This document shows, piece after piece, positions 1 to 12,236 of a stretch of DNA of 31,483 bases (its first letter is position 1; each line of letters opens with the position of its first letter). The notes under the pieces are model-generated. The model was given only the letters and a program-made list of their open reading frames with translations, was not told the DNA's origin and searched no databases. This DNA comes from Gammaproteobacteria bacterium. GTDB taxonomy: Bacteria > Pseudomonadota > Gammaproteobacteria > Chromatiales > Chromatiaceae. A program made the position numbers and the translations under genes. Location: positions 1 to 31,483 of the forward strand of contig JAHDCB010000001.1 in the NCBI GenBank assembly GCA_020630035.1, written 5' to 3'.

Positions 1-1754
1 TACAGACCGGATTGATCGCGTCCCATCCGGTGGGCCCAAACAGGTCTTTGGATTCTGCTCAGCGTATAGTCTGCAGAAGCAGTGTGTAATATCCAATTCT
101 CAGTCTTCTCGGCATTACCGAGGCGTAGAGTCTGAGGTGATATTGTGGGCGCAATCGGCTGTATGGGTAAGGTTGTATCGACACCGGTCAGATACAGATT
201 ACCGTCATGCTGTAGCTGTAGAATCGGATTACCGGGCTGCGGATCAGACTGTAGCCTGATGCCGTCAGTATCTTCCACCAACCAGCAGTCGTGCGGTTGA
301 TATGTCTGGTTGTGTACCAGCGGCCAGTAATCAGTGGATAGCCCTGGTGGCCAGCGTTCCGGGTGTGTGCGTAATTCGTCGCTGTGGGCGGTTAAATATG
401 CTTGTGCGTAGGCAGGTCTGGTTTGGGTTCTGAGTAACAGATGTTGCCGGTGTCCGGTCTGTGTTAGCCAGTTTTTGGTCTCTGTTGGTGCACTACCTTG
501 TTGCTGATGGGTGCATAGCTGGTGAAAAAAATGGTCACAGGCTTGGATGACTGTTGTTGGTAAGGGTACGCCGAGTTGGTGTAGTCGGTGGACTTCTTCG
601 TGACGTGGTTCAGTCAACCAGTAGGTGTGGTGTGTCAGGATAGCTTTGCCGATCTGGTGTTTGATGGTATTCGGCAGTTCAGCAAAACGTTCCTGATAAT
701 AAATTGCTTGGTCAGTGCGCAGGCAATAACCATCATAAGTGGCGCACACAGCGGCGTGTTGCCACACGTTAACTTCAGCAGCGGCAGATATATCAGGAAA
801 CAACTGACGGATGGTGCGCAGTAGGGCAGGTTCGACAAACAAGGCAGCACTGGTGATGGCGAGTAACTGTTCTGTTTGCGTGCTGATCTGCGTGGCAGAG
901 ACGGTGCTGGTAGGAGGTACTTCGGGTTGAATCGGATACAGACCCGGTGCAGGCCCGGCTATCTTCAGGCTATACACAGGAATCTGTTGTGCCTGCCAGA
1001 TACGGCTGAGAGTTGCCCAGTGAGTGGTATGCAGCTCATCCAGCACCAGTATCGCATCTCCTGGCTGAGGTGACTGGTGTGGCGACTTATTCTGGTGTGT
1101 GGTGTCGGAGCCACGCCGAAAGGTGGTTAACCGGATACGTTGTGCGCCCAGCTGTTGTCGCACCTGGCGCTGGATTTGTGCATAGTCAGCCTGCAACGGG
1201 GTCAGCTCGCGTCGGGTATTGCGCCAGACGTGCAGCATACGCGGCCAGCGTGGTCGAGCCTGATATGGTATTCGCCGCAGAGGTTGCCCGCGTGCAATCT
1301 GGCGTACGGCACGTCTCAGATGCAGTCGGCGGCCTGGCTGTAAACGCCGTATCTGACGCAGCAGTTGGTTGTGGATCTGCGCATCACGACATAAGGTAGG
1401 TGATGCTAATCGTTCGCCCTCCTGCCCGCGCTGTAATAACGCATCAATAGGTGCCCGGTCTTCTTTTGTTGATTCTGGGTCAGGGATGACAGGTGGATTG
1501 ATCTGTTTGTCGACGTAATGTGTGACACACACAGCAGACCAGCGTCGTATATCGGTATCAGGTGCTGTTGTGTCGTGGCTGGTCTCATCAACCAGATGAT
1601 CAAGGGCGGGTGTCGGTAAAGCGGGTGTTTCTGTTATCGGAGCTGTCTGCCGGCGGCAAAATCCCAATTGTGCAGCCAGATGATCCGGATTTGCTTCCGG
1701 CAAGGTGACATGAGCCCGAATCAGATCGCCATACCAGCGTAAATGAGATGACAT
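1..1754 (-). CDS. Large vWA-like component of a MoxR ternary system, probably fused to a C-terminal FGS/CLec domain beyond the window edge (C-terminally truncated by the window, at least 584 aa; absent from the ORF track)
   Basis: Manual translation from ATG at 1754 (22 bp after the MoxR stop) is open to the edge: MSSHLRWYGDLIRAHVTLPEANPDHLAAQLGFCRR...PGRRLHLRRAVRQIARGQPLRRIPYQARPRWPRMLHVWRNTRRELTPLQADY...PGDAILVLDEL...LLAITSAALFVEPALLRTIRQLFP...LSRIQRPVWAHRMGRDQSGL(Y). The last motif parallels the N-terminus of the DGR target (PPTWATDWGEDIYGLY). The vWA assignment is from remembered family motifs. Confidence 0.8.
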   Translation of the reverse strand, partial: MSSHLRWYGDLIRAHVTLPEANPDHLAAQLGFCRRQTAPITETPALPTPALDHLVDETSHDTTAPDTDIRRWSAVCVTHYVDKQINPPVIPDPESTKEDRAPIDALLQRGQEGERLASPTLCRDAQIHNQLLRQIRRLQPGRRLHLRRAVRQIARGQPLRRIPYQARPRWPRMLHVWRNTRRELTPLQADYAQIQRQVRQQLGAQRIRLTTFRRGSDTTHQNKSPHQSPQPGDAILVLDELHTTHWATLSRIWQAQQIPVYSLKIAGPAPGLYPIQPEVPPTSTVSATQISTQTEQLLAITSAALFVEPALLRTIRQLFPDISAAAEVNVWQHAAVCATYDGYCLRTDQAIYYQERFAELPNTIKHQIGKAILTHHTYWLTEPRHEEVHRLHQLGVPLPTTVIQACDHFFHQLCTHQQQGSAPTETKNWLTQTGHRQHLLLRTQTRPAYAQAYLTAHSDELRTHPERWPPGLSTDYWPLVHNQTYQPHDCWLVEDTDGIRLQSDPQPGNPILQLQHDGNLYLTGVDTTLPIQPIAPTISPQTLRLGNAEKTENWILHTASADYTLSRIQRPVWAHRMGRDQSGL

Positions 1755-1776: not shown

Positions 1777-2736
1777 TTATCCATAGTGACTGCCAGTCTG
1801 GTGTTTGTCTAATACATATTGTTTGGCCTGATTAAATAATGCTCGCTGGGTCTTTGCATCCTGTGCCAGTGTGCTGAGTGCGCGTAATAAATCCAGATAT
1901 TCAGCCTGGCCCGGCAGCGGCAAGCCTTGGCTATGGGCATCGGCACGACTATGCCATAACTGGCTGGCGGCATCAGCGTACAGTGTTTCATCATGGATCG
2001 TGGTGGCAAAGTGTGCTCGACCACGCCGACTCAGCTGAGCGACAAAATCGGTTTCTTTGTCCGGCAGAGCAAGGGCCAGTACCCAGCAGCGGCGCACAAA
2101 GGCCGGCGGTAACTCGCGCTCTTCATTCGTGGTGATGATCACCAGTGGTGCAACCCCGGTCTGGCAGATGCGTTCCCGGCGATATGGCACCTGAAAACTG
2201 CCTTGTCCGAGAGTTTCCAGCAAGCCATTCGGTACGTCAGACTCCGCCTTGTCTATCTCGTCCAGTACGACCACCACGCCCGCCGGGGTGGTATCAGGGT
2301 GTGCTGGCCCGGTCGTGTTAAAGGCACAGGTCTGATGAGCCTGTGCGGCACTCGTCCAGTCAAGTGCCCACCATAATGGTCCCGGGCTCAGGTAACGAGC
2401 GGGTTGTAAGATTTGTGCCGCATCCGCAGTCGGGTTGTGTGCCAGTAATTGTGCTTCACCCAGCCGGGCGATGTCATCAAACGTATACAACAGATCGTGA
2501 CTTTCGGTGTGTGAATCGAGTGTTTTGTGGATCAGTTGCCAGCTCCAAGCCTTGGCCACGGCTGCTGCTAACTGAGTTTTACCAACACCGGGCTCACCAC
2601 GTACCAGCAAGGGACGGTTGGCGGCATAGGCGGCTCGTACGGCGAGTGCTGCCTCTGCTGTTAATTCATGCGGTAGTGGTTGTGCGTCATTGCCCAACTC
2701 AATCGTGTCGGTAGGTAATTCAGGTGGACGTGGCAT
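1777..2736 (-). CDS. MoxR-family AAA+ ATPase (ternary conflict-system type)
   Basis: Walker A GEPGVGKT, Walker B VVVVLDEIDK, LLYTFDDIARL, PGPLWWALDW and ITTNEERELPPAFVRRC. Its ATG overlaps the upstream stop (TGATG at 2734-2738). Confidence 0.9.
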   Translation of the reverse strand: MPRPPELPTDTIELGNDAQPLPHELTAEAALAVRAAYAANRPLLVRGEPGVGKTQLAAAVAKAWSWQLIHKTLDSHTESHDLLYTFDDIARLGEAQLLAHNPTADAAQILQPARYLSPGPLWWALDWTSAAQAHQTCAFNTTGPAHPDTTPAGVVVVLDEIDKAESDVPNGLLETLGQGSFQVPYRRERICQTGVAPLVIITTNEERELPPAFVRRCWVLALALPDKETDFVAQLSRRGRAHFATTIHDETLYADAASQLWHSRADAHSQGLPLPGQAEYLDLLRALSTLAQDAKTQRALFNQAKQYVLDKHQTGSHYG

Positions 2737-3926
2737 CAGTCACTCCGCTGCAGACGTTCAATTTGTTTGAGCATGCCATTCACATATTGTTGGCAGGCGC
2801 CATCTTCCATGAGTAATAAGCCGCTGATTGTACCGGTTCCCTGGTTGATCACGCTGAATATGAGCATTGCGGAAGACAGCCTTTTATCTATTTCACATAA
2901 TGCTGCAATCCAGGTTGGATCGGTAAAATAATTTTTTTCCACCTTAATGTAATAAGATAGTTTTTCTTCTGCTTTTTTGTCCTCCAGAATTTGTTGTATG
3001 GTTTGAATCGTATCTTCGATAGGCCCTATTTGTTGTGTGTTGTCTAATTCCTGATAGATTTGCAATAACAGACTTTTCATCGCCTGTTTTGTGCTATCGG
3101 TAATCCCGTAAGCGTGTGGTAGTGGGTAGACCGGTGTTTTGTTATCTTGTATATCTCTTTTTTCAACTTCAATCTCATTTTCGTATATTACGTTTTTGCT
3201 GACATCGATATGCGGGAAGGTCTTGGAAAGTCTACCATTGACAATGGGTAAAATAAAGTCATGGCCTATGTCGATCTCCAGGCCGGGTAATGTGGTATTC
3301 CCATCAGGTTTGCGTAAGCGGCTTTTTGCAGCGTCTGAATTAACAATCAATAATAATAAGGTACAAAATACATGCCACATCTGGTATCCCCAGTCGGCTT
3401 CAGGCCTTTTTCCTCGCTTAATCCAATCTTCGACGGTCTTGACGAACGCAGACTTAAACCGTAGCAGGCATGCCTGGATGTGATTTTTACTATCAGACGG
3501 CTTACGGACGATATTGTAAGCAATCTCTTTTGGCTCCGGCTTGCACCCCAGACGTTGTGAAAACTCATCCAATAACGTTTGTGTGACTTCAGCATAAGAT
3601 GGGTTTTTTATTGTGAGATAATCGACAATCCTGTTTTCAATCTCAATATAAAATTCGTTATCCAGTTTGATATCGTTTAAACCGGACAGGTCTTTGTCAT
3701 TTTTTATGGCTGCTGCAATGATTTTTTCTGGTTCGGACGTGCTGGAAACTTGTTCCTGAAGCACTTCAACTTTTACTTTAATAGTCTGTTGCTGTTTTGA
3801 ACCCCAGCTCTGGTACCATTGTTGCAGGTCTGCTTTTAACTCAGGGACAGGGTGTTGCAGTATTACCGTTTTCCGGCTGATTTCGAGAAAAGCAAGCAGT
3901 TGGTCAAAGAAGATACGCCAAGTCAT
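2736..3926 (-). CDS. Hypothetical 396-aa protein; positional third component of the MoxR-vWA module
   Basis: Long ORF with an AAGAGG RBS-like motif upstream, translationally coupled to MoxR. AT-rich: two sampled 60-mers are 28% and 33% GC versus 63% in a MoxR sample. No recognisable motif. Confidence 0.75.
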   Translation of the reverse strand: MTWRIFFDQLLAFLEISRKTVILQHPVPELKADLQQWYQSWGSKQQQTIKVKVEVLQEQVSSTSEPEKIIAAAIKNDKDLSGLNDIKLDNEFYIEIENRIVDYLTIKNPSYAEVTQTLLDEFSQRLGCKPEPKEIAYNIVRKPSDSKNHIQACLLRFKSAFVKTVEDWIKRGKRPEADWGYQMWHVFCTLLLLIVNSDAAKSRLRKPDGNTTLPGLEIDIGHDFILPIVNGRLSKTFPHIDVSKNVIYENEIEVEKRDIQDNKTPVYPLPHAYGITDSTKQAMKSLLLQIYQELDNTQQIGPIEDTIQTIQQILEDKKAEEKLSYYIKVEKNYFTDPTWIAALCEIDKRLSSAMLIFSVINQGTGTISGLLLMEDGACQQYVNGMLKQIERLQRSD

Positions 3927-4128
3927 ATCACGGCCTCTTATTCTGAAATATGATAAATACCCATTGGTATCAGGGCCACGCAGCTCATCAGCATTGTGGT
4001 TTTTTTACAGTAGTCGCCAGGCCAACAGGCTTTCAGCTTGATGCTTACTCACCGGCTGGCAGGCATTTACTTTTTGCCGACATCTTGTCGGGCAGGATAA
4101 CTGTCTGGTCAGATCAGGTTGATCTGAG

Positions 4129-4242
4129 CTGGGGCAATCCGGAAGCCCTGGTTGTTGTTCCGGTTGTCGGGCCTGTTCCTGTTGCGGTAGGCTGAACGCA
4201 ACCTCCTGGCATTGTTGATCCAGGAGCCACCGCGCACCACGC
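4129..4242 (-). ncRNA. DGR template repeat (TR)
   Basis: Begins 19 bp after the RT stop. In the target frame it reads VVRGGSWINNARRLRSAYRNRNRPDNRNNNQGFRIAP, with 8 AAC/AAT codons and 27 adenines. It aligns ungapped to 5893-6006 (offset 1764). Confidence 0.96.
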
Positions 4243-4261
4243 CCGGCGTGATTGCTGACAG

Positions 4262-5281
4262 TCACCCGATGCTATCAGACACGAAATCCGGGTATTTTTG
4301 CAAGTGGTTTTGTCGCCAGGCACGGCTGTCTGCATGTTGTGTCATGGCGTATACCGAATTTAACGCTTGTTGTAGCGCCAGGTCATCCAGTATGCCTTGC
4401 TGCCATTGTTGTTCGTAAGTGGTACGTAATGTGTGATAACGACGTTTTTTGCGGGGACTCAGGCGGATGGCACCTGGCAGAATGCGATAGCCACAATAGC
4501 TGACGCCCTGACGGCTGCGATTGATAACAGGGTTTGGTTTGATCAGCAATTGTCTGTGTTGGTGCAGATAGTCGGTGAGTTGTTTTAGTGTATCGCGTGC
4601 GGCTATTTTGTCATGGCACCACCAGATGATATCGTCCATGTAACGCACCTGGGCGCGTACAGCCGATTGCTCAATCAGATAGCGGTCGGCACCACTTAGG
4701 TAGAGATTGGCAAAATGTTGGGAGGTTAAGGAACCAATCGGTAATCCTTTGCCTGGTTGCGCCTGATAGCCGTGGATAATTCGGGTTAACAGGTACAAAA
4801 ATGGTTGGCCTTTGAAATGCCGCGCCAGCAATTTCAGTAGGCTGGCATGATCCACACTCGGAAAATAACCTGCGATATCTACCTTGACGTACCAGTCAAA
4901 CCGTTGCAGATTACGTTGTACTTGTGTGACTGCACGATGCACCCCCTTGCCAGGACGGCAGGCATAGCAACCGGGTAGCAGCAGACGCTCAAAGATAGAC
5001 TCTGTTTGGTTCAGAATAGCATGATGTAAGACCCGGTCTGCAAAACAGGGGGCATGAATCAGGCGTTTTTTCGGATCTCGAATGTAAAAGCTGCGATAGG
5101 CATTATGTGGTACCTGATCTTGCAAAATGGCAGTGCTGAGGTGCGCGAGTTGGTGATCCAGGTCAGCGAGAAAAGCAGCAACATCCGGTCTGTGTCGCTT
5201 GCTGCGTGCTGCCTTGTATGTTGCCTGTAGCAGGTTGGTGTAGCTGGCGATCTCAGTCAGTGAGATGGCGTGTCGGCGCAT
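4262..5281 (-). CDS. DGR reverse transcriptase (339 aa)
   Basis: IRDPKKRLIHAPCFADRVLHHA, YACRPGKG, VKVDIAGYFPSVDH, GLPIGSLTSQHFANLYL (DGR GxxxSQ signature) and RYMDD catalytic motif. Compact, with no maturase or endonuclease extension. Confidence 0.96.
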   Translation of the reverse strand: MRRHAISLTEIASYTNLLQATYKAARSKRHRPDVAAFLADLDHQLAHLSTAILQDQVPHNAYRSFYIRDPKKRLIHAPCFADRVLHHAILNQTESIFERLLLPGCYACRPGKGVHRAVTQVQRNLQRFDWYVKVDIAGYFPSVDHASLLKLLARHFKGQPFLYLLTRIIHGYQAQPGKGLPIGSLTSQHFANLYLSGADRYLIEQSAVRAQVRYMDDIIWWCHDKIAARDTLKQLTDYLHQHRQLLIKPNPVINRSRQGVSYCGYRILPGAIRLSPRKKRRYHTLRTTYEQQWQQGILDDLALQQALNSVYAMTQHADSRAWRQNHLQKYPDFVSDSIG

Positions 5282-5744
5282 GTTGAGTGCTTCCGGAGCT
5301 GGTTTGCTGCAAACAGTTTAAAAAGGCAACACCATATTTTTCTAAGCGGGCTGTACCGACACCCTCAATTTCGCCCAGTTGTGTCAGGTTGCGGACTCGT
5401 TGCGTGACCATAGTGGCCAGTTGTTCGTGGGTAAACAAGGCATAGGCTGGTACACCTTCCTGTTGCGCCAGGTTCTTGCGCAGACTTCTTAGTTCGGCAT
5501 AAGTTGTAAAGTCTTCCGGGCTTAACACTTCCCGGTAATCAATCCGGTCACGCCTGGATGAGCGTTGCTGTGGTGGGGTATCACTTGTGATATAGGTGAC
5601 ACAGATTGCCCAGAAGCTTTCCAGTCCTTGACTGACCAAATGTTTTTCTACGGTGACAACGCGATGCTGGTGACAGAATGTATTTAACAGTTTCTGGCCG
5701 TCATCTGGTGTTACCGCATCAACCTTGAAAAATGCAAATGGCAT
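5253..5744 (-). CDS. HRDC-domain DGR accessory protein (163 aa; start reassigned to ATG 5744)
   Basis: C-terminal HRDC pattern YAELRSLRKNLAQQEGVPAYALFTHEQLATMV...LTQLGEIEGVGTARLEKYGVAFL. The ORF-track extension to 5858 runs through non-coding hairpins. The 3' end overlaps the RT start by 29 bp. Confidence 0.85.
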   Translation of the reverse strand: MPFAFFKVDAVTPDDGQKLLNTFCHQHRVVTVEKHLVSQGLESFWAICVTYITSDTPPQQRSSRRDRIDYREVLSPEDFTTYAELRSLRKNLAQQEGVPAYALFTHEQLATMVTQRVRNLTQLGEIEGVGTARLEKYGVAFLNCLQQTSSGSTQHAPTRHLTD

Positions 5745-5775
5745 GGCAAAACCTGGCAAGACGCAAAAATTTTTT

Positions 5776-5880
5776 GAAGGCACCGCTATCACGGTGCCTT
5801 CTTGTTTGTTGTTGCTGACATGCGCGCGGCTCCGCCGCTGCTGGTCAGACAACAACAAATCTATCGCGGCTCCGCCGCTG
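5776..5880 (-). promoter_or_regulatory. Post-VR hairpin/cruciform cluster (candidate DGR target-recognition elements)
   Basis: Two copies of GCGGC-GGA-GCCGC on the minus strand (5866-5878 and 5826-5838) inside a 16-bp direct repeat (5865-5880 and 5825-5840). An imperfect inverted repeat 5805-5819/5844-5859 encloses the second copy. A perfect 10-bp inverted repeat lies at 5776-5785/5792-5801. Confidence 0.7.
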
Positions 5881-6691
5881 ACCTGACCTGACCTGGGGCA
5901 ATCCGGAAGCCCAGGCTGCCGAACCGGTCGTCGGGCCCGCCCCTGCTGCGGCAGGCCGAACGCAACCCCCCGGCAACGCCGATCCAGGAGCCACCGCGCA
6001 CCACGCGATACTCGCCCGTTGCAGGGCCTGTGGGATCCACAGACTGTGATACATCATATTCTGCGTACCAGTCGGCACACCATTCCCATACATTGCCGTG
6101 CATCTGATATAAACCCCACGGATTTGCAGGTAATGCCTTAACCGGTATAGTTTGTTCCCGGTACTCACCCTTTTGTCCATCGGTATACGGATAATTACCA
6201 TCATAATTGGCTTGATGCGTCGTGATTGTCTGACCAAATGAAAATGGTGTGGTAGTGCCGGCCCGACAGGCATATTCCCACTGTGCTTCAGTGGGTAGTC
6301 CGACAGCTAGCTCGGGTACCCGGGCATTCAGTTGTTGCAAAAAGATGTGTACATGGTCCCAACTAATTTGTTCGACCGGGTTTTGCAGGTCATGCTGAAA
6401 ATGGGCCGGGTTGTCACCGGTCACTGCCTGCCAGAGGGCTTGTGTGCACGCTGTGTCGGCCAGCCAGTAGCCTTGACTCAGGGTCACCAGATGTGGTGTT
6501 TCATCAGTATTGCGTTCGGGTTCATCTGGTGGTGATCCCATCATGAATCGGCCTGGTGGTATCCAGCGGCAGCGTTGGTGTGCTGTTCCAAGCATAAAGC
6601 CAGCATACAGGCCGTAGATATCCTCACCCCAGTCGGTTGCCCAGGTGGGTGGAAAGGGTTCTGGCCAGATAAATGTTCTGGTGTTGGTCAT
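5861..6691 (-). CDS. DGR target protein, FGE-sulfatase (FGS)/CLec-fold domain, 276 aa, no signal peptide
   Basis: WIPPGRFMMGSP, ETPHLVTL, LPTEAQWEYACRAGT, ANPWGLYQMHGNVWEWCADW and RVVRGGSW...GFRIAP. The VR encodes the last about 37 conserved-frame residues. Start reassigned to ATG 6691, 8 bp after the trkH stop; the ORF-track start at 6778 overlaps trkH. Confidence 0.93.
   Translation of the reverse strand: MTNTRTFIWPEPFPPTWATDWGEDIYGLYAGFMLGTAHQRCRWIPPGRFMMGSPPDEPERNTDETPHLVTLSQGYWLADTACTQALWQAVTGDNPAHFQHDLQNPVEQISWDHVHIFLQQLNARVPELAVGLPTEAQWEYACRAGTTTPFSFGQTITTHQANYDGNYPYTDGQKGEYREQTIPVKALPANPWGLYQMHGNVWEWCADWYAEYDVSQSVDPTGPATGEYRVVRGGSWIGVAGGLRSACRSRGGPDDRFGSLGFRIAPGQVRSAAEPR
5893..6006 (-). 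repeat. DGR variable repeat (VR)
   Basis: Matches the TR at 95 of 114 positions. All 19 differences are at TR adenines (15 A>G, 4 A>T), giving 13 amino-acid changes: VVRGGSWIGVAGGLRSACRSRGGPDDRFGSLGFRIAP. Confidence 0.96.
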
Positions 6692-6699
6692 CGTCTGTG

Positions 6700-8148
6700 T
6701 TAGCGGCGCCAGAAGGCTGGTGAGAGTAAGACCAGCAGGGTGAAGATTTCGAGTCGCCCGAGCAGCATCGCAAAGCACAGGATGCCCTTGCTGATATCTG
6801 GCAGGTCAGCATAGTGTGACCCTACCTGGCCGAGTCCTGGCCCGAGGTTGTTGATACTGGCAGCCGTCGCGCTGAATGCGGTGATCAGATCCAGACCGGT
6901 CGCTGCCAGGCTCAGGTAGATCAGGCTGAAGCTGGCGACATACAGGGCGAAAAACCCCCAGACAGCGCCAACAATCCGGGTTGAGATCACCTTGTCGCCG
7001 ATGCGCAGGGGCAGTTGGGCGCTGGGATGGATCAGGCGCATGATCTCGCGCATGCCTTGTTTGAATAACAACAGGATGCGGATGACCTTCATGCCGCCGC
7101 CCGTTGAACCAGCACAGCCACCGATAAAGCTGCTGAATAGCAGCAGGATGGTGATAAAGGCTGGCCACTGGTGCCACTCGGCGGTGGTAAATCCGGCGGT
7201 GGTTGCGATTGATACTGCCTGAAACAGGCCCTGGCTGACATTGGTCTGCCAGGCTGTGCCCGGGTTGGTCAGTAGTAGCCCGATGATGGTGCCGAGTACC
7301 ACCAGGCTTAATAGCGAGACGTACAGCCGACATTCGGCGTCTTGCCAGTAGATACGCAGGTTGCGGCGGCGCAGGGCGACAAAGTGTAATGAGAAGTTGA
7401 TCGCTGCCAGCAGCATAAAGATGATTGCGACAGCCTGTATTGCCGGGCTGGCAAAATGGCCGAGGCTGGCATCGTGGGTTGAAAAGCCGCCGATGGCGAT
7501 GGTTGCATACGCATGGCCTAACGCATCAAACACGCTCATCCCGGCGGCCCAATAGGCGACGGCGCAAATTAGGGTCAGGCTAAGATAAATTAACCACAAG
7601 GCCTTCGCGGTTTCGGTAATACGCGGGGTCAGTTTTGCATCTTTCATCGGCCCGGGTGTTTCTGCCCGGTAGAGTTGCATGCCACCGATGCCCAGTAGCG
7701 GCAATACCGCCACCGCTAAGACGATGATGCCCATCCCACCGAGCCATTGCAGCTGCTGGCGGTAGTACAGGATAGAACGTGGCAGGTCATCAAGCTGGGT
7801 GATGACGGTTGCACCTGTGGTGGTCAGTCCAGAGACAGATTCAAACAGTGCGTCGATAACGGATAGTTCTGGTTCATGTGCCAACATGAATGGCAGGGAG
7901 CCGGTGGCGGTGAGTACCAGCCAGAACATGGCCACGATAATAAAGCCGTCACGCAATTGCATTTCGCGCCGTGGCCGGATCACTGGCAGCCAGCTGATCA
8001 GCCCGATACTGAGGGTCAGGGTAAATGCAGTGGCAAATGCAGTCGCTGTGTTATCTGCATCGTAAATTGCCAGCCCCAGCGGAGGTAGCAGGGTCAGGCT
8101 GAAGAAGGTGAGTAAGATACCGAGGATGCGCTGGATGGGTGAGGACAT
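6700..8148 (-). CDS. trkH: Trk K+ uptake membrane protein
   Basis: Polytopic protein with pore motifs FESVSGLTTTGAT, QWLGGMGI, IAIGGFS, SIATTAGF, GGCAGSTGGGMK, INNLGPG and MLLGRLEI. Confidence 0.96.
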   Translation of the reverse strand: MSSPIQRILGILLTFFSLTLLPPLGLAIYDADNTATAFATAFTLTLSIGLISWLPVIRPRREMQLRDGFIIVAMFWLVLTATGSLPFMLAHEPELSVIDALFESVSGLTTTGATVITQLDDLPRSILYYRQQLQWLGGMGIIVLAVAVLPLLGIGGMQLYRAETPGPMKDAKLTPRITETAKALWLIYLSLTLICAVAYWAAGMSVFDALGHAYATIAIGGFSTHDASLGHFASPAIQAVAIIFMLLAAINFSLHFVALRRRNLRIYWQDAECRLYVSLLSLVVLGTIIGLLLTNPGTAWQTNVSQGLFQAVSIATTAGFTTAEWHQWPAFITILLLFSSFIGGCAGSTGGGMKVIRILLLFKQGMREIMRLIHPSAQLPLRIGDKVISTRIVGAVWGFFALYVASFSLIYLSLAATGLDLITAFSATAASINNLGPGLGQVGSHYADLPDISKGILCFAMLLGRLEIFTLLVLLSPAFWRR

Positions 8149-9562: not shown

Positions 9563-10366
9563 CTAAAAGTGACGTTCGCGCCGAATGACTTCGTAGGCTT
9601 GCTTGATCTCATGGGTTTTTTTCGCAGCCACTTGCATCATGTCTTCCGGCAGACCTTTGGAGACCAGCTTATCCGGGTGGTGTTGGCTGAGCAGCCGCCG
9701 GTAAGCACGCTTGATTTCTGCGACTGAGGCCTGCGGGCTGATACCCAGTAAGGCATAGGCGTCAGCTGTTGATGGTTCTGATCGGGTGGTTTGTCCCTGT
9801 TGATGGAAGCCGCGTCCGGCTTGTACCATCCGCTCCATGCGCCGGTAGTGTTGTTCACTGACCCCCAGGCTGGCACAGATCTGCAATAACAACTGATCTT
9901 CTGCGGTATGCAGTTGACCGTCTGCGTAGGCGGCGTGTAATTGTATTTCCAGGAAGGTTTGCAGCAGGCCCGGCCTGCCTCGGCAGACCTGACCCAGCTC
10001 GCGTAGACGGGCGTGCAGATCGCATTGGTCTGCTTTGCCTTCATTAAACAATCGAATCGCATTGGCACGCTGTGCTGCACTCAGGCCCAGTTGTGCGATT
10101 ACCTGTTCAGCCAGGCGGATTTCGGCCGGGCTGATCTGACCGTCTGCCTTGGCTAGTTTGCCCATGATCTGGAAGGTCGCCCGAAAAAAGACCGTCTCGA
10201 CTTGTTCCCGGCTGGTAAAGTTAAACGGGTGCTGAAACTGATGCAGCGGGATCTGACGCCAACCCCGATCAAACTGATGACCTAATATCGCACCGAATAT
10301 GGCTCCCCAGAAGCCGCCGAACAGGTGCCCGAAAAAGGCACCGATAATTTTTCCCCACCATTGCAT
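9563..10366 (-). CDS. djlA: Co-chaperone DjlA
   Basis: N-terminal membrane anchor [11 protein letters not shown]...GHQFD, central [11 protein letters not shown] segment, and a C-terminal J-domain with HHPDK. Confidence 0.93.
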
Positions 10367-10390
10367 GGTTTAATCTTCCTCAGAGTCTGT

Positions 10391-10714
10391 ATGCGCTATT
10401 ACCAGCAACATGTGTTTTTCTGTACCAATCTGCGTGATTCTGTCCGTCAGTCGTGCCAGCGATGTGATGCTCAGGCTGCCCGGAATTATGTCAAACAACG
10501 CTGTAAAGCAGTATTTTCTGATCCACGTGCCATTCGTATCAACAGTGCCGGGTGTCTGAACCGTTGTCAACACGGTCCGGTGTTGGTGATCTACCCGCAG
10601 GGTATCTGGTATCGCTATGATAATCAGAACGATCTGGACGACATTATTGATCAGCATCTGCAAAAAGGCGAGATAGTCGAGCGGCTATTGTTGCCAGCAC
10701 CTCCGGCATTATGA
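10391..10714 (+). CDS. Thioredoxin-like [2Fe-2S] ferredoxin (start reassigned to ATG 10391)
   Basis: HVFFCTNLR...CQRC...RINSAGCLNRCQHGPVLVIYPQGIWY pattern with the four expected cysteines. Confidence 0.88.
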   Translation: MRYYQQHVFFCTNLRDSVRQSCQRCDAQAARNYVKQRCKAVFSDPRAIRINSAGCLNRCQHGPVLVIYPQGIWYRYDNQNDLDDIIDQHLQKGEIVERLLLPAPPAL

Positions 10715-10734
10715 CGATTGGCATGGTAAATTTG

Positions 10735-11961
10735 TCAGGGATGCAGGATATGATGTTGTGCAATGGTCTTGATTGTATTTGACCTGATGCCAAGATCAGC
10801 AGCGAGGGTGTGCCACTGGCTGAGTGCCTGTGTGGTTTGTTCTACGATTGTTATTGCTTTGTTGGGCTTGATATCAGCGAGCCTGGCCAGGTCAAGCAGG
10901 TGTTGTTGTGTAAATCGTCGGCTTGCTCCCATCAGCAGTGTGCTTTGTTCGCCATTCGGGCCAGAGGAATAGGTGATGTCGTATGCCGGTGAAAAGGTCC
11001 AGGTGCCGGTTTTATCCAGGATGAATGAAAAGTTTTTGGCATGATCATCCCGGTTATGCGACAACACGTTGAAGACGGCTAACTGGTACAGCTTTTCGAC
11101 TTCTTTTACAGATCGAGTCAGGACAAAACAGGCCTTGATCAGATCCTGATAGTCCAGACAGGGCGTTCTGAAGTCTGCGTGTAATAAACCACAGGCACTG
11201 AGAATGTGGCGGCGCTGGTTATGCTGCCGGTCAAATCGCCGGGTGGCAAAATAACGTTGCTGTAACAGCCGTACCTCTGGTACATCAACACCGGCCAGTT
11301 GTGCCATCCTGGCATAGGCGTATTCAATCAGACCGGCTTGCGGGTCATCATACAGGTGGCTGAATTTAACGATCCAGTGTTGAAAGCCGGTCGGCAGATC
11401 ACCTACCCCGGGTATGACCTGACTGGCTTGTTCGTTCAGGCCAATCAGCACCTTTGGCCGCGCACCAGCGGATGACCCGTTCAGTCGGAATAACTGTTCG
11501 GAAAACTCAGTGCCTCCCTGGATCAGGGCTGCTTGTTCCGCCAGACTGGACAGATCCAGCAGGGTATCCTGGTGTGTTGTATCGCTATAGTCAGGCAGGT
11601 AGGTTAAGGCGCCTATTGCTTGCTGACCGACTGCACATAACCGATCTAATGGCGAACAGCGAGCTGGGTCAATCTGACGCGATCTGAGCTTCCGGTCCAG
11701 CAATAAGCGCCCCCAGCCGTCCGGCAGGCTGTCATTAAACACACCGAACAGACCTTCAAACAAGTGCGGTTCTGCACGTATCAAGCCGGTTCTCAGGGGC
11801 AGTCTGAAGGGCGAAATCTGCAAACTGGAATGGATAAATTCCCGGTCATATTCAAAAAAAATCACCCGATCTTTGATTGCCAGTCTGCCCACCGATAGGG
11901 TGGTATCCTGATCAAAGTGTAATGTCACCTTGACTTGTGTGGCGGGTAGAAAACTGGTCAT
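10735..11961 (-). CDS. hipA: HipA-family kinase toxin (type II TA)
   Basis: N-terminal coupling region (FEYD...SLPDGWG), Gly loop GSSAGARPK, RRFDR, catalytic NRDDHAKNFS and SPAYD. Confidence 0.92.
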   Translation of the reverse strand: MTSFLPATQVKVTLHFDQDTTLSVGRLAIKDRVIFFEYDREFIHSSLQISPFRLPLRTGLIRAEPHLFEGLFGVFNDSLPDGWGRLLLDRKLRSRQIDPARCSPLDRLCAVGQQAIGALTYLPDYSDTTHQDTLLDLSSLAEQAALIQGGTEFSEQLFRLNGSSAGARPKVLIGLNEQASQVIPGVGDLPTGFQHWIVKFSHLYDDPQAGLIEYAYARMAQLAGVDVPEVRLLQQRYFATRRFDRQHNQRRHILSACGLLHADFRTPCLDYQDLIKACFVLTRSVKEVEKLYQLAVFNVLSHNRDDHAKNFSFILDKTGTWTFSPAYDITYSSGPNGEQSTLLMGASRRFTQQHLLDLARLADIKPNKAITIVEQTTQALSQWHTLAADLGIRSNTIKTIAQHHILHP

Positions 11962-12236
11962 GGCAAGGTTTTTAACAAATCATCCATGGACGTGTAGGGT
12001 GTCGCTTGAGCATAAAACAGCGTCATCAGGTCGTCCGCCAGTTCCAGTACAAACAAAAGCTTGATGAAAGAGGCCAGAGAGATCTGGCCGGTTTGTTCGT
12101 ATTTCCGTAAGGTGGACAGAGAAACGCCGGATAACTCAGCCAGCCGGACCTGGCTAAGCTGCATTTGTTTTCTGCGTTTTCTGACGGCCTGACATAACTC
12201 AGCCAATAATTCGCGCGGTGTTCTAAGTGATACCAT
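11958..12236 (-). CDS. XRE/HTH antitoxin (HipB-like)
   Basis: 92 aa with RRKQMQLSQVRLAELSGVSLSTLRKYEQTG helix-turn-helix; overlaps the hipA start by 4 bp. Confidence 0.88.
   Translation of the reverse strand: MVSLRTPRELLAELCQAVRKRRKQMQLSQVRLAELSGVSLSTLRKYEQTGQISLASFIKLLFVLELADDLMTLFYAQATPYTSMDDLLKTLP

Follow-up and report, generated by a model that had tools for sequence, protein, structure and literature searches.

To our knowledge, DGRs are the only prokaryotic systems for targeted protein hypermutation. Their VR falls in a ligand-binding fold of the C-type lectin/FGE or Ig kind, their accessory protein is Avd or, in a minority, an HRDC protein, and a structured RNA beside the TR supports cis-primed synthesis of cDNA. 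The element of Bordetella phage BPP-1, with the order mtd-avd-TR-brt, is one in which the function of the hairpins that follow the VR has been demonstrated (PMC3240598). In the HRDC-type DGRs ("Architecture C," with Treponema denticola TvpA as the prototype), the accessory protein carries an HRDC domain, and about half of the members described had avd (Wu et al., 2018, PMC5758913). The RNA elements of DGRs have been surveyed in print for Avd-containing members only. Two further descriptions join a DGR to a MoxR-type ATPase: the "clade 5A" loci, such as DGR 8 of Thiohalocapsa PB-PSB1 (Doré et al., 2024, PMC10907252), and the vWA-MoxR ternary conflict systems (Kaur et al., 2020, PMC7159879). Diversification of the putative sensors of MoxR/STAND conflict systems by this clade has been proposed to be an anticipatory immune-like mechanism.

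Here we describe a locus of an uncultured proteobacterium in a window of 31,483 nucleotides, by which we mean the whole stretch of DNA analyzed. Taken as a whole, it is very probably a chromosomal DGR of the Avd-less, HRDC-accessory type. By gene set and shared host taxa, it matches the "clade 5A" loci (PMC10907252). The first-pass annotation had placed the interest of the locus in this instance and its context. That interest was set too high, as both architecture and context are already in print (PMC10907252, PMC7159879, PMC5758913). The element type is described and widespread, and the general picture of DGRs is unchanged by the locus. What is new is a covarying RNA behind the TR, the deletion of the DGR core in a sister lineage (L071), and homing since the split from that lineage. 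The features are collected in Table 1.

TABLE 1. Positions in the window of the DGR, its neighbors and associated elements.
Feature	Position	Strand	Remarks
Long protein, 584 aa seen, runs off the contig	3..1754	-	No recognized domains
MoxR-like AAA+ ATPase, 319 aa	1777..2736	-	Pfam AAA_5 1.1e-11, bpMoxR 0.002
396-aa protein, no recognized domain	2736..3926	-	Stop overlaps MoxR start
Structured RNA 3' of TR	4005..4127	-	Covariation and covariance model
TR	4129..4242 (homology on to 4120)	-	Begins 20 bp past the RT stop codon
DGR reverse transcriptase, 339 aa, full length	4262..5281	-	IGSLTSQ and YMDD
Accessory gene, 163 aa from the ATG at 5744	5253..5744	-	Pfam HRDC 3.6e-15
Perfect 10-bp inverted repeat between target and accessory gene	5776..5801	.	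Terminator-like
Target gene, 276 aa, FGE-sulfatase/C-type-lectin fold	5861..6691	-	Pfam FGE-sulfatase E 4.9e-42
GC-rich hairpin GCGGC-GGA-GCCGC (coding strand)	5866..5878	-	Within the last target codons
IMH-like 3' boundary of VR (GTCAGGTCA)	5884..5892	-	G at 5892 faces TR C
VR	5893..6006 (homology on to 5884)	-	19 mismatches to TR, all at TR adenines

The TR/VR Pair

Realignment reproduced what had been claimed for the repeats: TR and VR, 114 bp each, align without gaps and, read on the minus (coding) strand, differ at 19 positions, every one a TR adenine. Thus 19 of the 27 TR adenines are hit (15 A>G, 4 A>T), and the hypergeometric probability that all 19 mismatches should fall on adenines by chance is ~1e-15. 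In the target frame, the TR has eight Asn codons (seven AAC and one AAT), all of which are changed in the VR. At the protein level, a recount gave the same 13 amino-acid changes as first reported, those at the eight Asn codons included, and one difference is silent.

The homology continues for 9 bp past the core, to 4120 in the TR and 5884 in the VR (123 bp in total), with two further mismatches. One of these is a fixed non-adenine difference, C at 4128 in the TR against G at 5892 in the VR. Across 10 loci of the RT clade, each of the 19 VR copies compared shows the same difference, AGGTCA in the VR as against AGCTCA in the TR. The whole codons of the 123-bp repeat contain 29 adenines, of which 27 lie at codon position 1 or 2, and a codon check of the TR found no stop codon within reach of adenine substitution in the repeat. 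The nucleotide space had been put at 4^27, about 1.8e16, which is arithmetically right; the protein-level repertoire over the 123-bp repeat is ~3.4e15. The substitutions are skewed (A>G 16 of 20, A>C none; p ~2.5e-5 against equal thirds), which selection or a bias of the RT could explain.

A gene segment that was duplicated and then diverged by ordinary mutation or gene conversion, with no retrohoming, would account for the bare existence of a repeat and for nothing else. Against it stand the confinement of 19 of 19 differences to one base type of one copy, the varied adenines at positions 1 and 2 of AAC codons, a DGR-type RT between the copies and the same pattern at dozens of related loci. 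We give this explanation next to no credence. The sequence features favor instead a DGR that is real and apparently working.

Neither the TR nor the target protein, used as queries against the assembly's own genome, brought up a second VR.

The Target Protein and the Elements Around the VR

The VR encodes residues ~230–267 of the target, at the 3'-end of its gene; the part so diversified is the binding tip of the small protein. The closest solved relative of the target is T. denticola variable protein 1 (TvpA, 2y3c; E 2.2e-25). Inspection of the N-terminus by eye revealed no evident signal peptide, and the 276-aa protein is probably cytoplasmic.

Six nucleotides beyond the end of the 123-bp homology begins the GC-rich hairpin, with a loop of 3 nt (GGA). 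The hairpin has a second copy at 5826–5838, within a larger inverted repeat, and the DNA fold of 5750–5900 has a z of -6.7. By eye, comparable short hairpins rich in GC, their loops being GGA, GGTA or the like, can be made out behind several VRs of relatives, most clearly at L023, L025, L028, and L029. By analogy with BPP-1, the hairpin in the window is a candidate target-recognition hairpin or cruciform, and it may have a role in homing. The inverted repeat between target and accessory gene looks like a terminator; a promoter and terminator scan gave nothing above shuffled expectation.

The Reverse Transcriptase and the HRDC Protein

An intact RT and an accessory gene had been reported between the repeats. 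Both are there: the RT has the two motifs characteristic of the DGR lineage, [ILV]GxxxSQ in motif 4 and YxDD (Table 1), and the accessory protein proved to contain an HRDC domain. Among solved structures the RT is nearest to 8ub7 (E 1.4e-39), which we take to be the Bordetella phage DGR RT; group II intron RTs follow at 1e-13 and chains labeled "retron-type" by their depositors at 1e-10. This, together with adenine-only differences between TR and VR and a VR at the 3'-end of a lectin-fold ORF, bears out the identification of the element as a DGR.

The accessory protein consists of a conserved N-terminal beta-alpha-beta-beta domain and a C-terminal HRDC domain. In its structural model (pLDDT 86), the HRDC part superposes on the HRDC domain of E. 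coli RecQ with an rmsd of 1.0 Å. A fold search with the whole model matched the HRDC half alone and returned no solved look-alike of the N-terminal domain. At 24 related loci, with 23 distinct sequences among them, the gene likewise precedes the RT. A profile search for Avd (PF05635) found none in the genome, which is 93.7% complete.

A Covarying RNA Behind the TR

Directly behind the TR lies a covarying RNA of ~110 nt that is common to the whole RT clade. A short hairpin (4111–4125) is followed by a conserved single-stranded stretch, GACCAGA...ATCCTG, from 4104–4110 onward, and by a second hairpin; then come the linker GCAAAAAG and a long helix that encloses a further hairpin. In an alignment of 19 sequences, the structure has 22 pairs, for which 96.4% of the cells are paired (32–46% in slid controls), and compensatory changes are found at 18 of the 22. 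The copy in the window is intact, keeping 21 of the 22 pairs. The covariance model matches 4005–4112 with 87 bits (E 1.4e-19), its sole match in the genome, and it matches once per DGR locus, including seven loci outside its training set. The element had been delimited at 4129–6691. The core of that assignment stands, and the outer limit does not, as the structured RNA 3' of the TR lies at 4005–4112.

Rfam, searched over 3800–6100 with E up to 1, yielded no family, and no description of the RNA was found in Rfam or in the searchable literature. The RNA probably corresponds to the "spacer" RNA of BPP-1, and a role in priming, shared with the HRDC protein, may be envisaged. A fuller proposal is that this so far undescribed counterpart positions the template and gives the priming site, the HRDC protein with its N-terminal domain replacing the Avd barrel. 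We advance it tentatively, as somewhat short of an even prospect. If true, there would be a second, mechanistically distinct route for assembly of the DGR ribonucleoprotein.

Relatives and Homing History

RT relatives of 30–70% identity, at more than 30 loci, have adenine-specific TR/VR pairs of their own. The same cassette is found in Methylococcales, Thiothrix, Electrothrix, Accumulibacter, a planctomycete, and a tubeworm symbiont. The collections searched held no near-identical second copy of the element in the window, the closest RT being 70% identical. One of the relatives was recovered from different metagenomes with flanks 98.9–99.7% identical, an identical TR, and VRs that differ only at TR adenines. 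Near-identical copies with different VRs mean that the clade is active in nature.

For the window's own lineage, the most informative relative is L071, a syntenic sister lineage from which HRDC gene, RT, and TR are gone by a clean deletion. L071 retains the target, the 396-aa protein, the MoxR, and the long protein together, and also the 3' half of the post-TR RNA. Since that RNA is a part of the cassette, we prefer deletion in L071 and reject the converse event, in which the lineage of the window would have gained the DGR core by insertion at the junction of target and 396-aa gene. The orthologous VRs of the two lineages differ at 18 of 30 adenine sites, compared with 7 of the 93 remaining sites (Fisher p = 1e-8). 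The divergence is 7.5% at the non-adenine sites of the VR and 18% in the rest of the target gene. In the window, VR and TR agree at each of the 92 non-adenine sites, the fixed boundary base aside. Homing in this lineage therefore postdates the split from L071, a conclusion drawn from sequence comparison. Elsewhere in the genus, all that is left in G001 is ~95 bp from the 5'-end of the target, a relic, and G002 and G003 have nothing.

The first-pass claim that the element has been active in this lineage is thus borne out by the comparison of lineages (18/30 vs. 7/93; 92/92), and not by reads. Independent Logan contigs (four runs, 3–7x) reproduce the TR-RT and VR-target junctions. One reads through the VR with two differences, whose positions are not listed, and one starts exactly at 6006; the depth is too shallow to reveal variation of the VR at the level of reads. 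A joint of 4236 to 6077 in such contigs was traced to the lectin-domain gene of another organism and discarded (flanks of only 21 nt, higher depth).

The DGR is probably active at the present day. Alternatively, the element could be a fossil that homed fairly recently and is now silent, through lack of expression or of a host factor, with a VR that is effectively fixed. Such a fossil would agree with the lack of demonstrable VR variation in reads, with the ongoing loss of the island in the genus, and with the frequency of degenerate loci in the clade (PMC10907252). It is less easily squared with a locus in which RT, HRDC gene, TR, post-TR RNA, and VR boundary are all intact. Nor would one expect an absence of non-adenine mismatches between TR and VR, when by a rough estimate 7–17 should have accumulated had the last homing preceded the L071 split. 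We therefore regard a silent element as decidedly improbable and hold to an active one.

The MoxR Module

Next to the DGR core are genes that are linked to it without belonging to it. The 396-aa protein is such a linked component. It had no match in Pfam, NCBIfam, or PADLOC. A homologue lies behind the TR at L069 and L070 (33% identity, E 2e-57), and in L071 a gene of 396 aa is found in the same syntenic position. Compared with iSTAND clusters, the protein had a feature score of 0.80, a weak iSTAND/TIR lead. MoxR homologues of 40–49% identity adjoin the DGR at L021–L026, L028, L030, and L031.

Pfam, NCBIfam, and PADLOC gave nothing for the 584 residues of the long protein, and at E up to 10, vWA, VMAP, and iSTAND had no match in either this protein or the 396-aa one. 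The visible part stops where a lectin-fold domain begins, with the first motif of that domain. The homologue at L069/L070 is joined to a complete FGE/lectin domain that carries a VR; the nearest orthologue, that of L071 (81% identity), ends after the N-terminal half of the lectin domain and has no VR. The long protein may be a second target of the DGR. No second lectin domain was found elsewhere in the assembly.

Judged by gene neighborhood and published proposals, the diversified protein is probably a variable ligand sensor for the adjoining MoxR-like ATPase module. The DGR might instead merely adjoin that module, and the lectin-fold protein serve an independent role, for example in binding a surface ligand or a metabolite. 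Between the short target and the MoxR gene there do lie the DGR core and the 396-aa gene; searches for vWA, VMAP, or effector domains detected none; and at L069/L070, the available sequence, which breaks off shortly before the long target, yielded no MoxR homologue, and downstream an integrase follows the 396-aa homologue. On the other hand, MoxR, long protein, short target, HRDC gene, RT, and TR are found as a set at loci in at least five distant taxa, L071 has held on to the remaining genes as a group after loss of the RT, and published analyses find the same linkage. We think an independent role unlikely, although less so than a silent element, and favor the sensor.

Proposed Mechanism

On the minus strand, the cassette would read target (VR), HRDC gene, RT, TR, and structured RNA. 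Its RNA would carry the TR with the conserved structured element of ~110 nt on the 3' side. The RT, probably with the HRDC protein, would copy the TR into cDNA, misincorporating opposite adenines. The cDNA would then replace the 114-bp VR, which corresponds to the last ~38 variable-region residues of the 276-aa lectin-fold protein. The direction and end point of the transfer are probably set by the AGCTCA (TR)/AGGTCA (VR) boundary and the GC-rich hairpin behind the VR. The diversified protein would probably feed ligand sensing to the MoxR-like ATPase module, as proposed for the "clade 5A" DGRs.

Comparison with Known Systems

With BPP-1, the locus shares adenine-specific transfer from an AAC-rich template, a lectin fold whose C-terminal end holds the VR, a boundary difference of IMH-like type, a GC-rich hairpin behind the VR, a non-coding, structured RNA that adjoins the TR on its 3' side, and an RT that matches 8ub7. 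It differs in being chromosomal rather than phage-borne, in having an HRDC protein where BPP-1 has the Avd barrel and the RT upstream of the TR, and in a hairpin loop of GGA instead of GRNA. In sequence, the post-TR RNA shows no detectable resemblance to the spacer of BPP-1.

As in the HRDC-type DGRs (PMC5758913), an HRDC accessory stands instead of Avd and the target is of the FGE-type lectin fold, with TvpA as the best solved relative. Here, however, no avd was found anywhere in the genome, the TR is downstream of the RT, and the accessory protein has the extra conserved N-terminal domain. The post-TR RNA and the HRDC accessory offer a handle on the workings of Avd-less DGRs.

The vWA-MoxR ternary systems (PMC7159879) likewise bring together a MoxR ATPase, a domain-less third protein, an FGS/lectin domain and a DGR. 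[quoted passage not shown] Neither vWA nor VMAP was detected in the neighbors here, and for iSTAND there is only the weak lead in the 396-aa protein.

The resemblance to the "clade 5A" loci (PMC10907252) extends to a MoxR-like ATPase adjoining a long target-type protein, to an N-terminal extension of that protein without predicted domain, to the presence of a short lectin-only target as well, and, judged by architecture and shared host taxa, to an RT that probably belongs to the cellular clade 5 group, which also includes those of Accumulibacter and Nitrosomonas. The gene order is different: short target, HRDC, RT, TR, 396-aa gene, MoxR, and long protein here; MoxR, long target, HRDC, RT, TR, and short target in most relatives. 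The lectin end of the long protein also lies off the contig. Finally, the "clade 5A" hosts are mostly multicellular or aggregate-forming bacteria, whereas the host here, with a genome of 1.6 Mb, was recovered from an algal metagenome. The locus is a clean, compact, and apparently intact example outside the multicellular hosts in which most of the clade is said to occur, with natural controls among its close relatives, one core-deleted, one relic, and two empty.

The repeat pair

All genes of the DGR region lie on the minus strand. The template repeat (TR) and the variable repeat (VR) align without gaps and differ at 19 positions, and on the coding strand all 19 are TR adenines (15 A>G and 4 A>T; 19 of the 27 TR adenines are altered). 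Mismatches placed at random over the 114 positions would all 19 hit the 27 adenines with a probability of about 1e-15. Read in the target's frame, TR carries eight Asn codons (seven AAC and one AAT), every one of them altered in VR; in all, VR differs from TR in 13 residues, and one further change is silent. The first-pass annotation had given these counts for the alignment, the mismatches, the adenines, the residues and the Asn codons, and a recount found all of them correct. Its claim of a complete DGR also holds, all known parts being intact: the adenine-only TR/VR pair, the RT, the accessory gene and the lectin-fold target. The window makes up one entire contig of a 1.6-Mb, 214-contig MAG, and searches of that assembly with TR and the target protein found no second VR for this TR.

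Features of the DGR and its neighborhood (forward-strand coordinates)
Feature	Position	Strand	Remarks
Long domain-less protein	3-1754	-	Leaves the contig just where the lectin-domain motif starts
MoxR ATPase	1777-2736	-	
396-aa gene	2736-3926	-	AT-richer; between TR and MoxR
Structured RNA	4005-4112	-	Sole covariance-model match in this genome
TR	4129-4242	-	
RT	4262-5281	-	339 aa; IGSLTSQ and YMDD
Accessory gene	start most likely ATG 5744	-	163 aa; C-terminal HRDC domain
Perfect 10-bp hairpin	5776-5801		After the 5826-5838 copy
GC-rich hairpin, second copy	5826-5838		Nested in a larger inverted repeat
GC-rich hairpin GCGGC-GGA-GCCGC (coding strand)	5866-5878	-	Six nucleotides past the end of homology
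Target	5861-6691	-	276-aa FGE-sulfatase/C-type-lectin-fold protein, Pfam 4.9e-42
VR	5893-6006	-	

Counted over whole codons, 27 of 29 TR adenines are at codon positions 1 or 2, and no adenine substitution can create a stop. The TR/VR homology extends nine bases more, to 4120/5884, with two further differences, one of them non-adenine (C in TR at 4128, G in VR at 5892). Over this longer pair (5884-6006 vs. 4120-4242) the spectrum is 16 A>G, 4 A>T and no A>C (n = 20), a skew toward A>G that departs from equal thirds (p about 2.5e-5). Selection for Gly, Ser or Asp codons, or a bias of the RT, may be the cause. By hand count, the two VR1 copies of one related DGR (L021, L047) have together about 13 G, 10 T and 3 C.

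Where the homology ends on its 3′ side there is a fixed non-adenine difference, AGCTC in TR and AGGTC in VR, shared by every one of the 19 VR copies compared (10 loci). By analogy with the DGR of Bordetella phage BPP-1, we read it as a putative marker of the IMH/IMH* type that would keep the transfer one-way. The hairpin region beyond this boundary folds far better than its shuffles (z = -6.7), and short GC-rich hairpins that look similar by eye follow the VRs of several relatives. In BPP-1, a hairpin/cruciform of such kind is needed for efficient homing (PMC3240598).

Proteins of the core

The best solved relative of the target is TvpA, the DGR variable protein of Treponema denticola (2y3c, E 2.2e-25). 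The RT matches PDB 8ub7 at E 1.4e-39 vs. about 1e-13 for group II intron RTs; the record of 8ub7 is titled just "Reverse transcriptase," and we take it to be the Bordetella phage bRT. The usual accessory family, Avd (PF05635), was not found in this 93.7%-complete genome. A model of the accessory protein built from 20 homologues (pLDDT 86) has two parts: a conserved N-terminal domain, beta-alpha-beta-beta in layout, and after it the HRDC domain, which superposes on its counterpart in E. coli RecQ at 1.0 A. In two Accumulibacter loci (L030:5767-6816 and L056:943-1992), a single 350-aa ORF joins the accessory N-terminal domain (residues 1-77) to the RT from about residue 67, without the HRDC domain and without the RT N-terminus. 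The ORF arose as a fusion by deletion or represents an architecture of its own.

A structured RNA 3′ of TR

After every TR of the clade the same layout is found: a variable hairpin, then a single-stranded, conserved stretch made up of GACCAGA, 3-8 nt and CATCCTG; beyond it come a second hairpin, GCAAAAAG and a long helix that encloses an inner hairpin. Given 19 distinct sequences, RNAalifold proposes 22 pairs, and compensatory changes are present in 18 of these. The paired cells amount to 96.4%, vs. 32-46% when the partners are slid, and the covariation score is 0.71, vs. 0.06-0.19 for slid partners; none of 500 shuffles reached it. The RNA of the window retains 21 of the 22 pairs. A covariance model finds exactly one match per DGR locus, always just past TR, including seven loci outside its training set (L069, L070, L027, L037, L023, L063, and L012). 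No family matched in an Rfam scan for an RNA flanking TR.

The 140-nt spacer RNA that adjoins the 3′ side of TR in BPP-1 provides the priming adenosine and binds bRT-Avd, and such elements have been surveyed in Avd-containing DGRs only (bioRxiv 10.1101/2023.10.23.563531). The RNA described here is probably the counterpart of that spacer in Avd-less, HRDC-type DGRs.

Evidence of homing since the split from a sister lineage

The gene order of the window recurs on a 94-kb JGI contig of this sister lineage (L071): uvrD through trkA and trkH, followed by the target, the 396-aa gene, MoxR and the long protein. Nucleotide identity between the two is 82-88%. L071 has no HRDC, RT or TR, and the RNA after TR has lost its 5′ half; the stretch missing runs roughly from window 5800 down to 4040, and the covariance model has no match in L071. 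The 3′ half of this RNA is still there, as are VR and the hairpins, so L071 derives from the full cassette by deletion. The deletion, within L071:6584-7640 (orthologous to window 6691-3900), is clean and leaves the target in frame with a frozen VR, a natural knockout of the DGR core.

The two VRs differ at 18 of 30 TR-adenine sites and at 7 of 93 other sites (Fisher p = 1e-8); over the remainder of the target gene the two lineages are 18% divergent. Between VR and TR of the window, 20 of 30 TR-adenine sites differ; elsewhere only the fixed boundary base does (0 of the remaining 92). Had the last homing been older than the L071 split, 7-17 non-adenine mismatches would be expected, by a rough estimate that ignores selection. 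Because there are none, homing appears to have taken place after the split. The earlier reading that the element has been active in this lineage is supported in this sense, for past homing, by the VR comparison.

Metagenomic sequences are neutral on this point. Three runs, all from an algal metagenome that is probably the source sample, contain the sequence, and a biofilm run contains a small part of it. In the four runs it occurs as contigs at 3-7x, one of which crosses VR with two differences and another begins exactly at 6006. The biofilm run (X4), from a different study, has a 198-bp contig over window 4122-4319 (TR and the 3′ end of the RT gene) with a single difference, and hardly any other part of the window. 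A related strain sampled at very low depth may be its source, or TR may be unusually conserved. For the clade, one relative's DGR is found in different metagenomes with flanks 98.9-99.7% identical, an identical TR and VRs different at adenine sites only, which shows that the clade is active in nature. At L069, the closest related DGR, with an RT 70% identical, the VR has a 3-nt insertion and several non-adenine differences from TR (1519-1648 vs. 3453-3579), and may no longer be refreshed by homing.

Turnover in the genus

The cassette is old at the trkH site and is repeatedly being lost, as the following observations show. No RT relative occurs in three further species of the genus, whose genomes are 98-100% complete, and the DGR-side flank of trkH is different in each. 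In one DGR-less species (G001), about 95 bp beside trkH (L044:9984-10080 vs. window 6603-6700) look like a degenerate relic of the cassette, from the 5′ end of the target. Finally, a relative of about 88% identity in the same sample diverges from the window exactly at 6702, the trkH end. The relic resembles the first 30 codons of the target but has a stop.

Neighboring genes

The long protein is a possible second target. Its homologue at L069/L070 (50% identity; L069:3-1649) continues into a full lectin domain that bears a VR. The L071 orthologue (10001-11932; 81% identity) stops after the N-terminal half of such a domain; this half shares 39% identity with the short target, and the orthologue has no VR. 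The 396-aa protein is a conserved partner and not an orphan, since a homologue follows TR at L069/L070 (33% identity over the full length, E 2e-57; L069:4212-5474) and in L071 a 396-aa gene stands in the same syntenic place. No domain is recognized in it, and an iSTAND/TIR feature is a weak lead.

L071 also has an HTH-HipA toxin-antitoxin-like pair (1039-2540; Pfam HTH_3, Couple_hipA, HipA_C). In the window, ORFs of equal lengths (92 and 408 aa; 10735-12236, minus strand) are in the syntenic place, between djlA and a UvrD-like helicase gene; the domain calls are from L071 alone.

Relation to known systems

The RT family has 1,597 proteins at E <= 1e-20. Since the closest RT relative is just 70% identical, there is no near-identical copy of the element in the collections searched. 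RT relatives at 43-60% identity are at loci of Methylococcales, Thiothrix, Candidatus Electrothrix, Accumulibacter, a planctomycete, a tubeworm symbiont and many metagenomes. Most related loci have adenine-specific TR/VR pairs, usually two VRs per TR. Their usual order is MoxR ATPase, long protein with a terminal lectin domain (VR1), HRDC, RT, TR and a short lectin-only protein (VR2). The window holds a permuted set: short target (VR), HRDC, RT, TR, 396-aa protein, MoxR and long protein.

Four elements go beyond the literature that could be searched. Two concern the DGR parts: the covarying RNA that follows TR where the DGR is of HRDC type, and the conserved domain at the N-terminus of the accessory protein. 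The other two are the series of natural deletions in the genus and the small genome of the host.

The DGR itself belongs to a published kind. HRDC accessory genes were found in 4% of DGRs (Wu et al., 2018; PMC5758913), and DGR-diversified FGS domains were earlier linked to vWA-MoxR systems (Kaur et al., 2020; PMC7159879). In RT "clade 5A," a MoxR-like ATPase is by a target with a domain-less N-terminal extension, together with a short lectin-only target (Doré et al., 2024; PMC10907252), the same organization as in the loci of the window's relatives.
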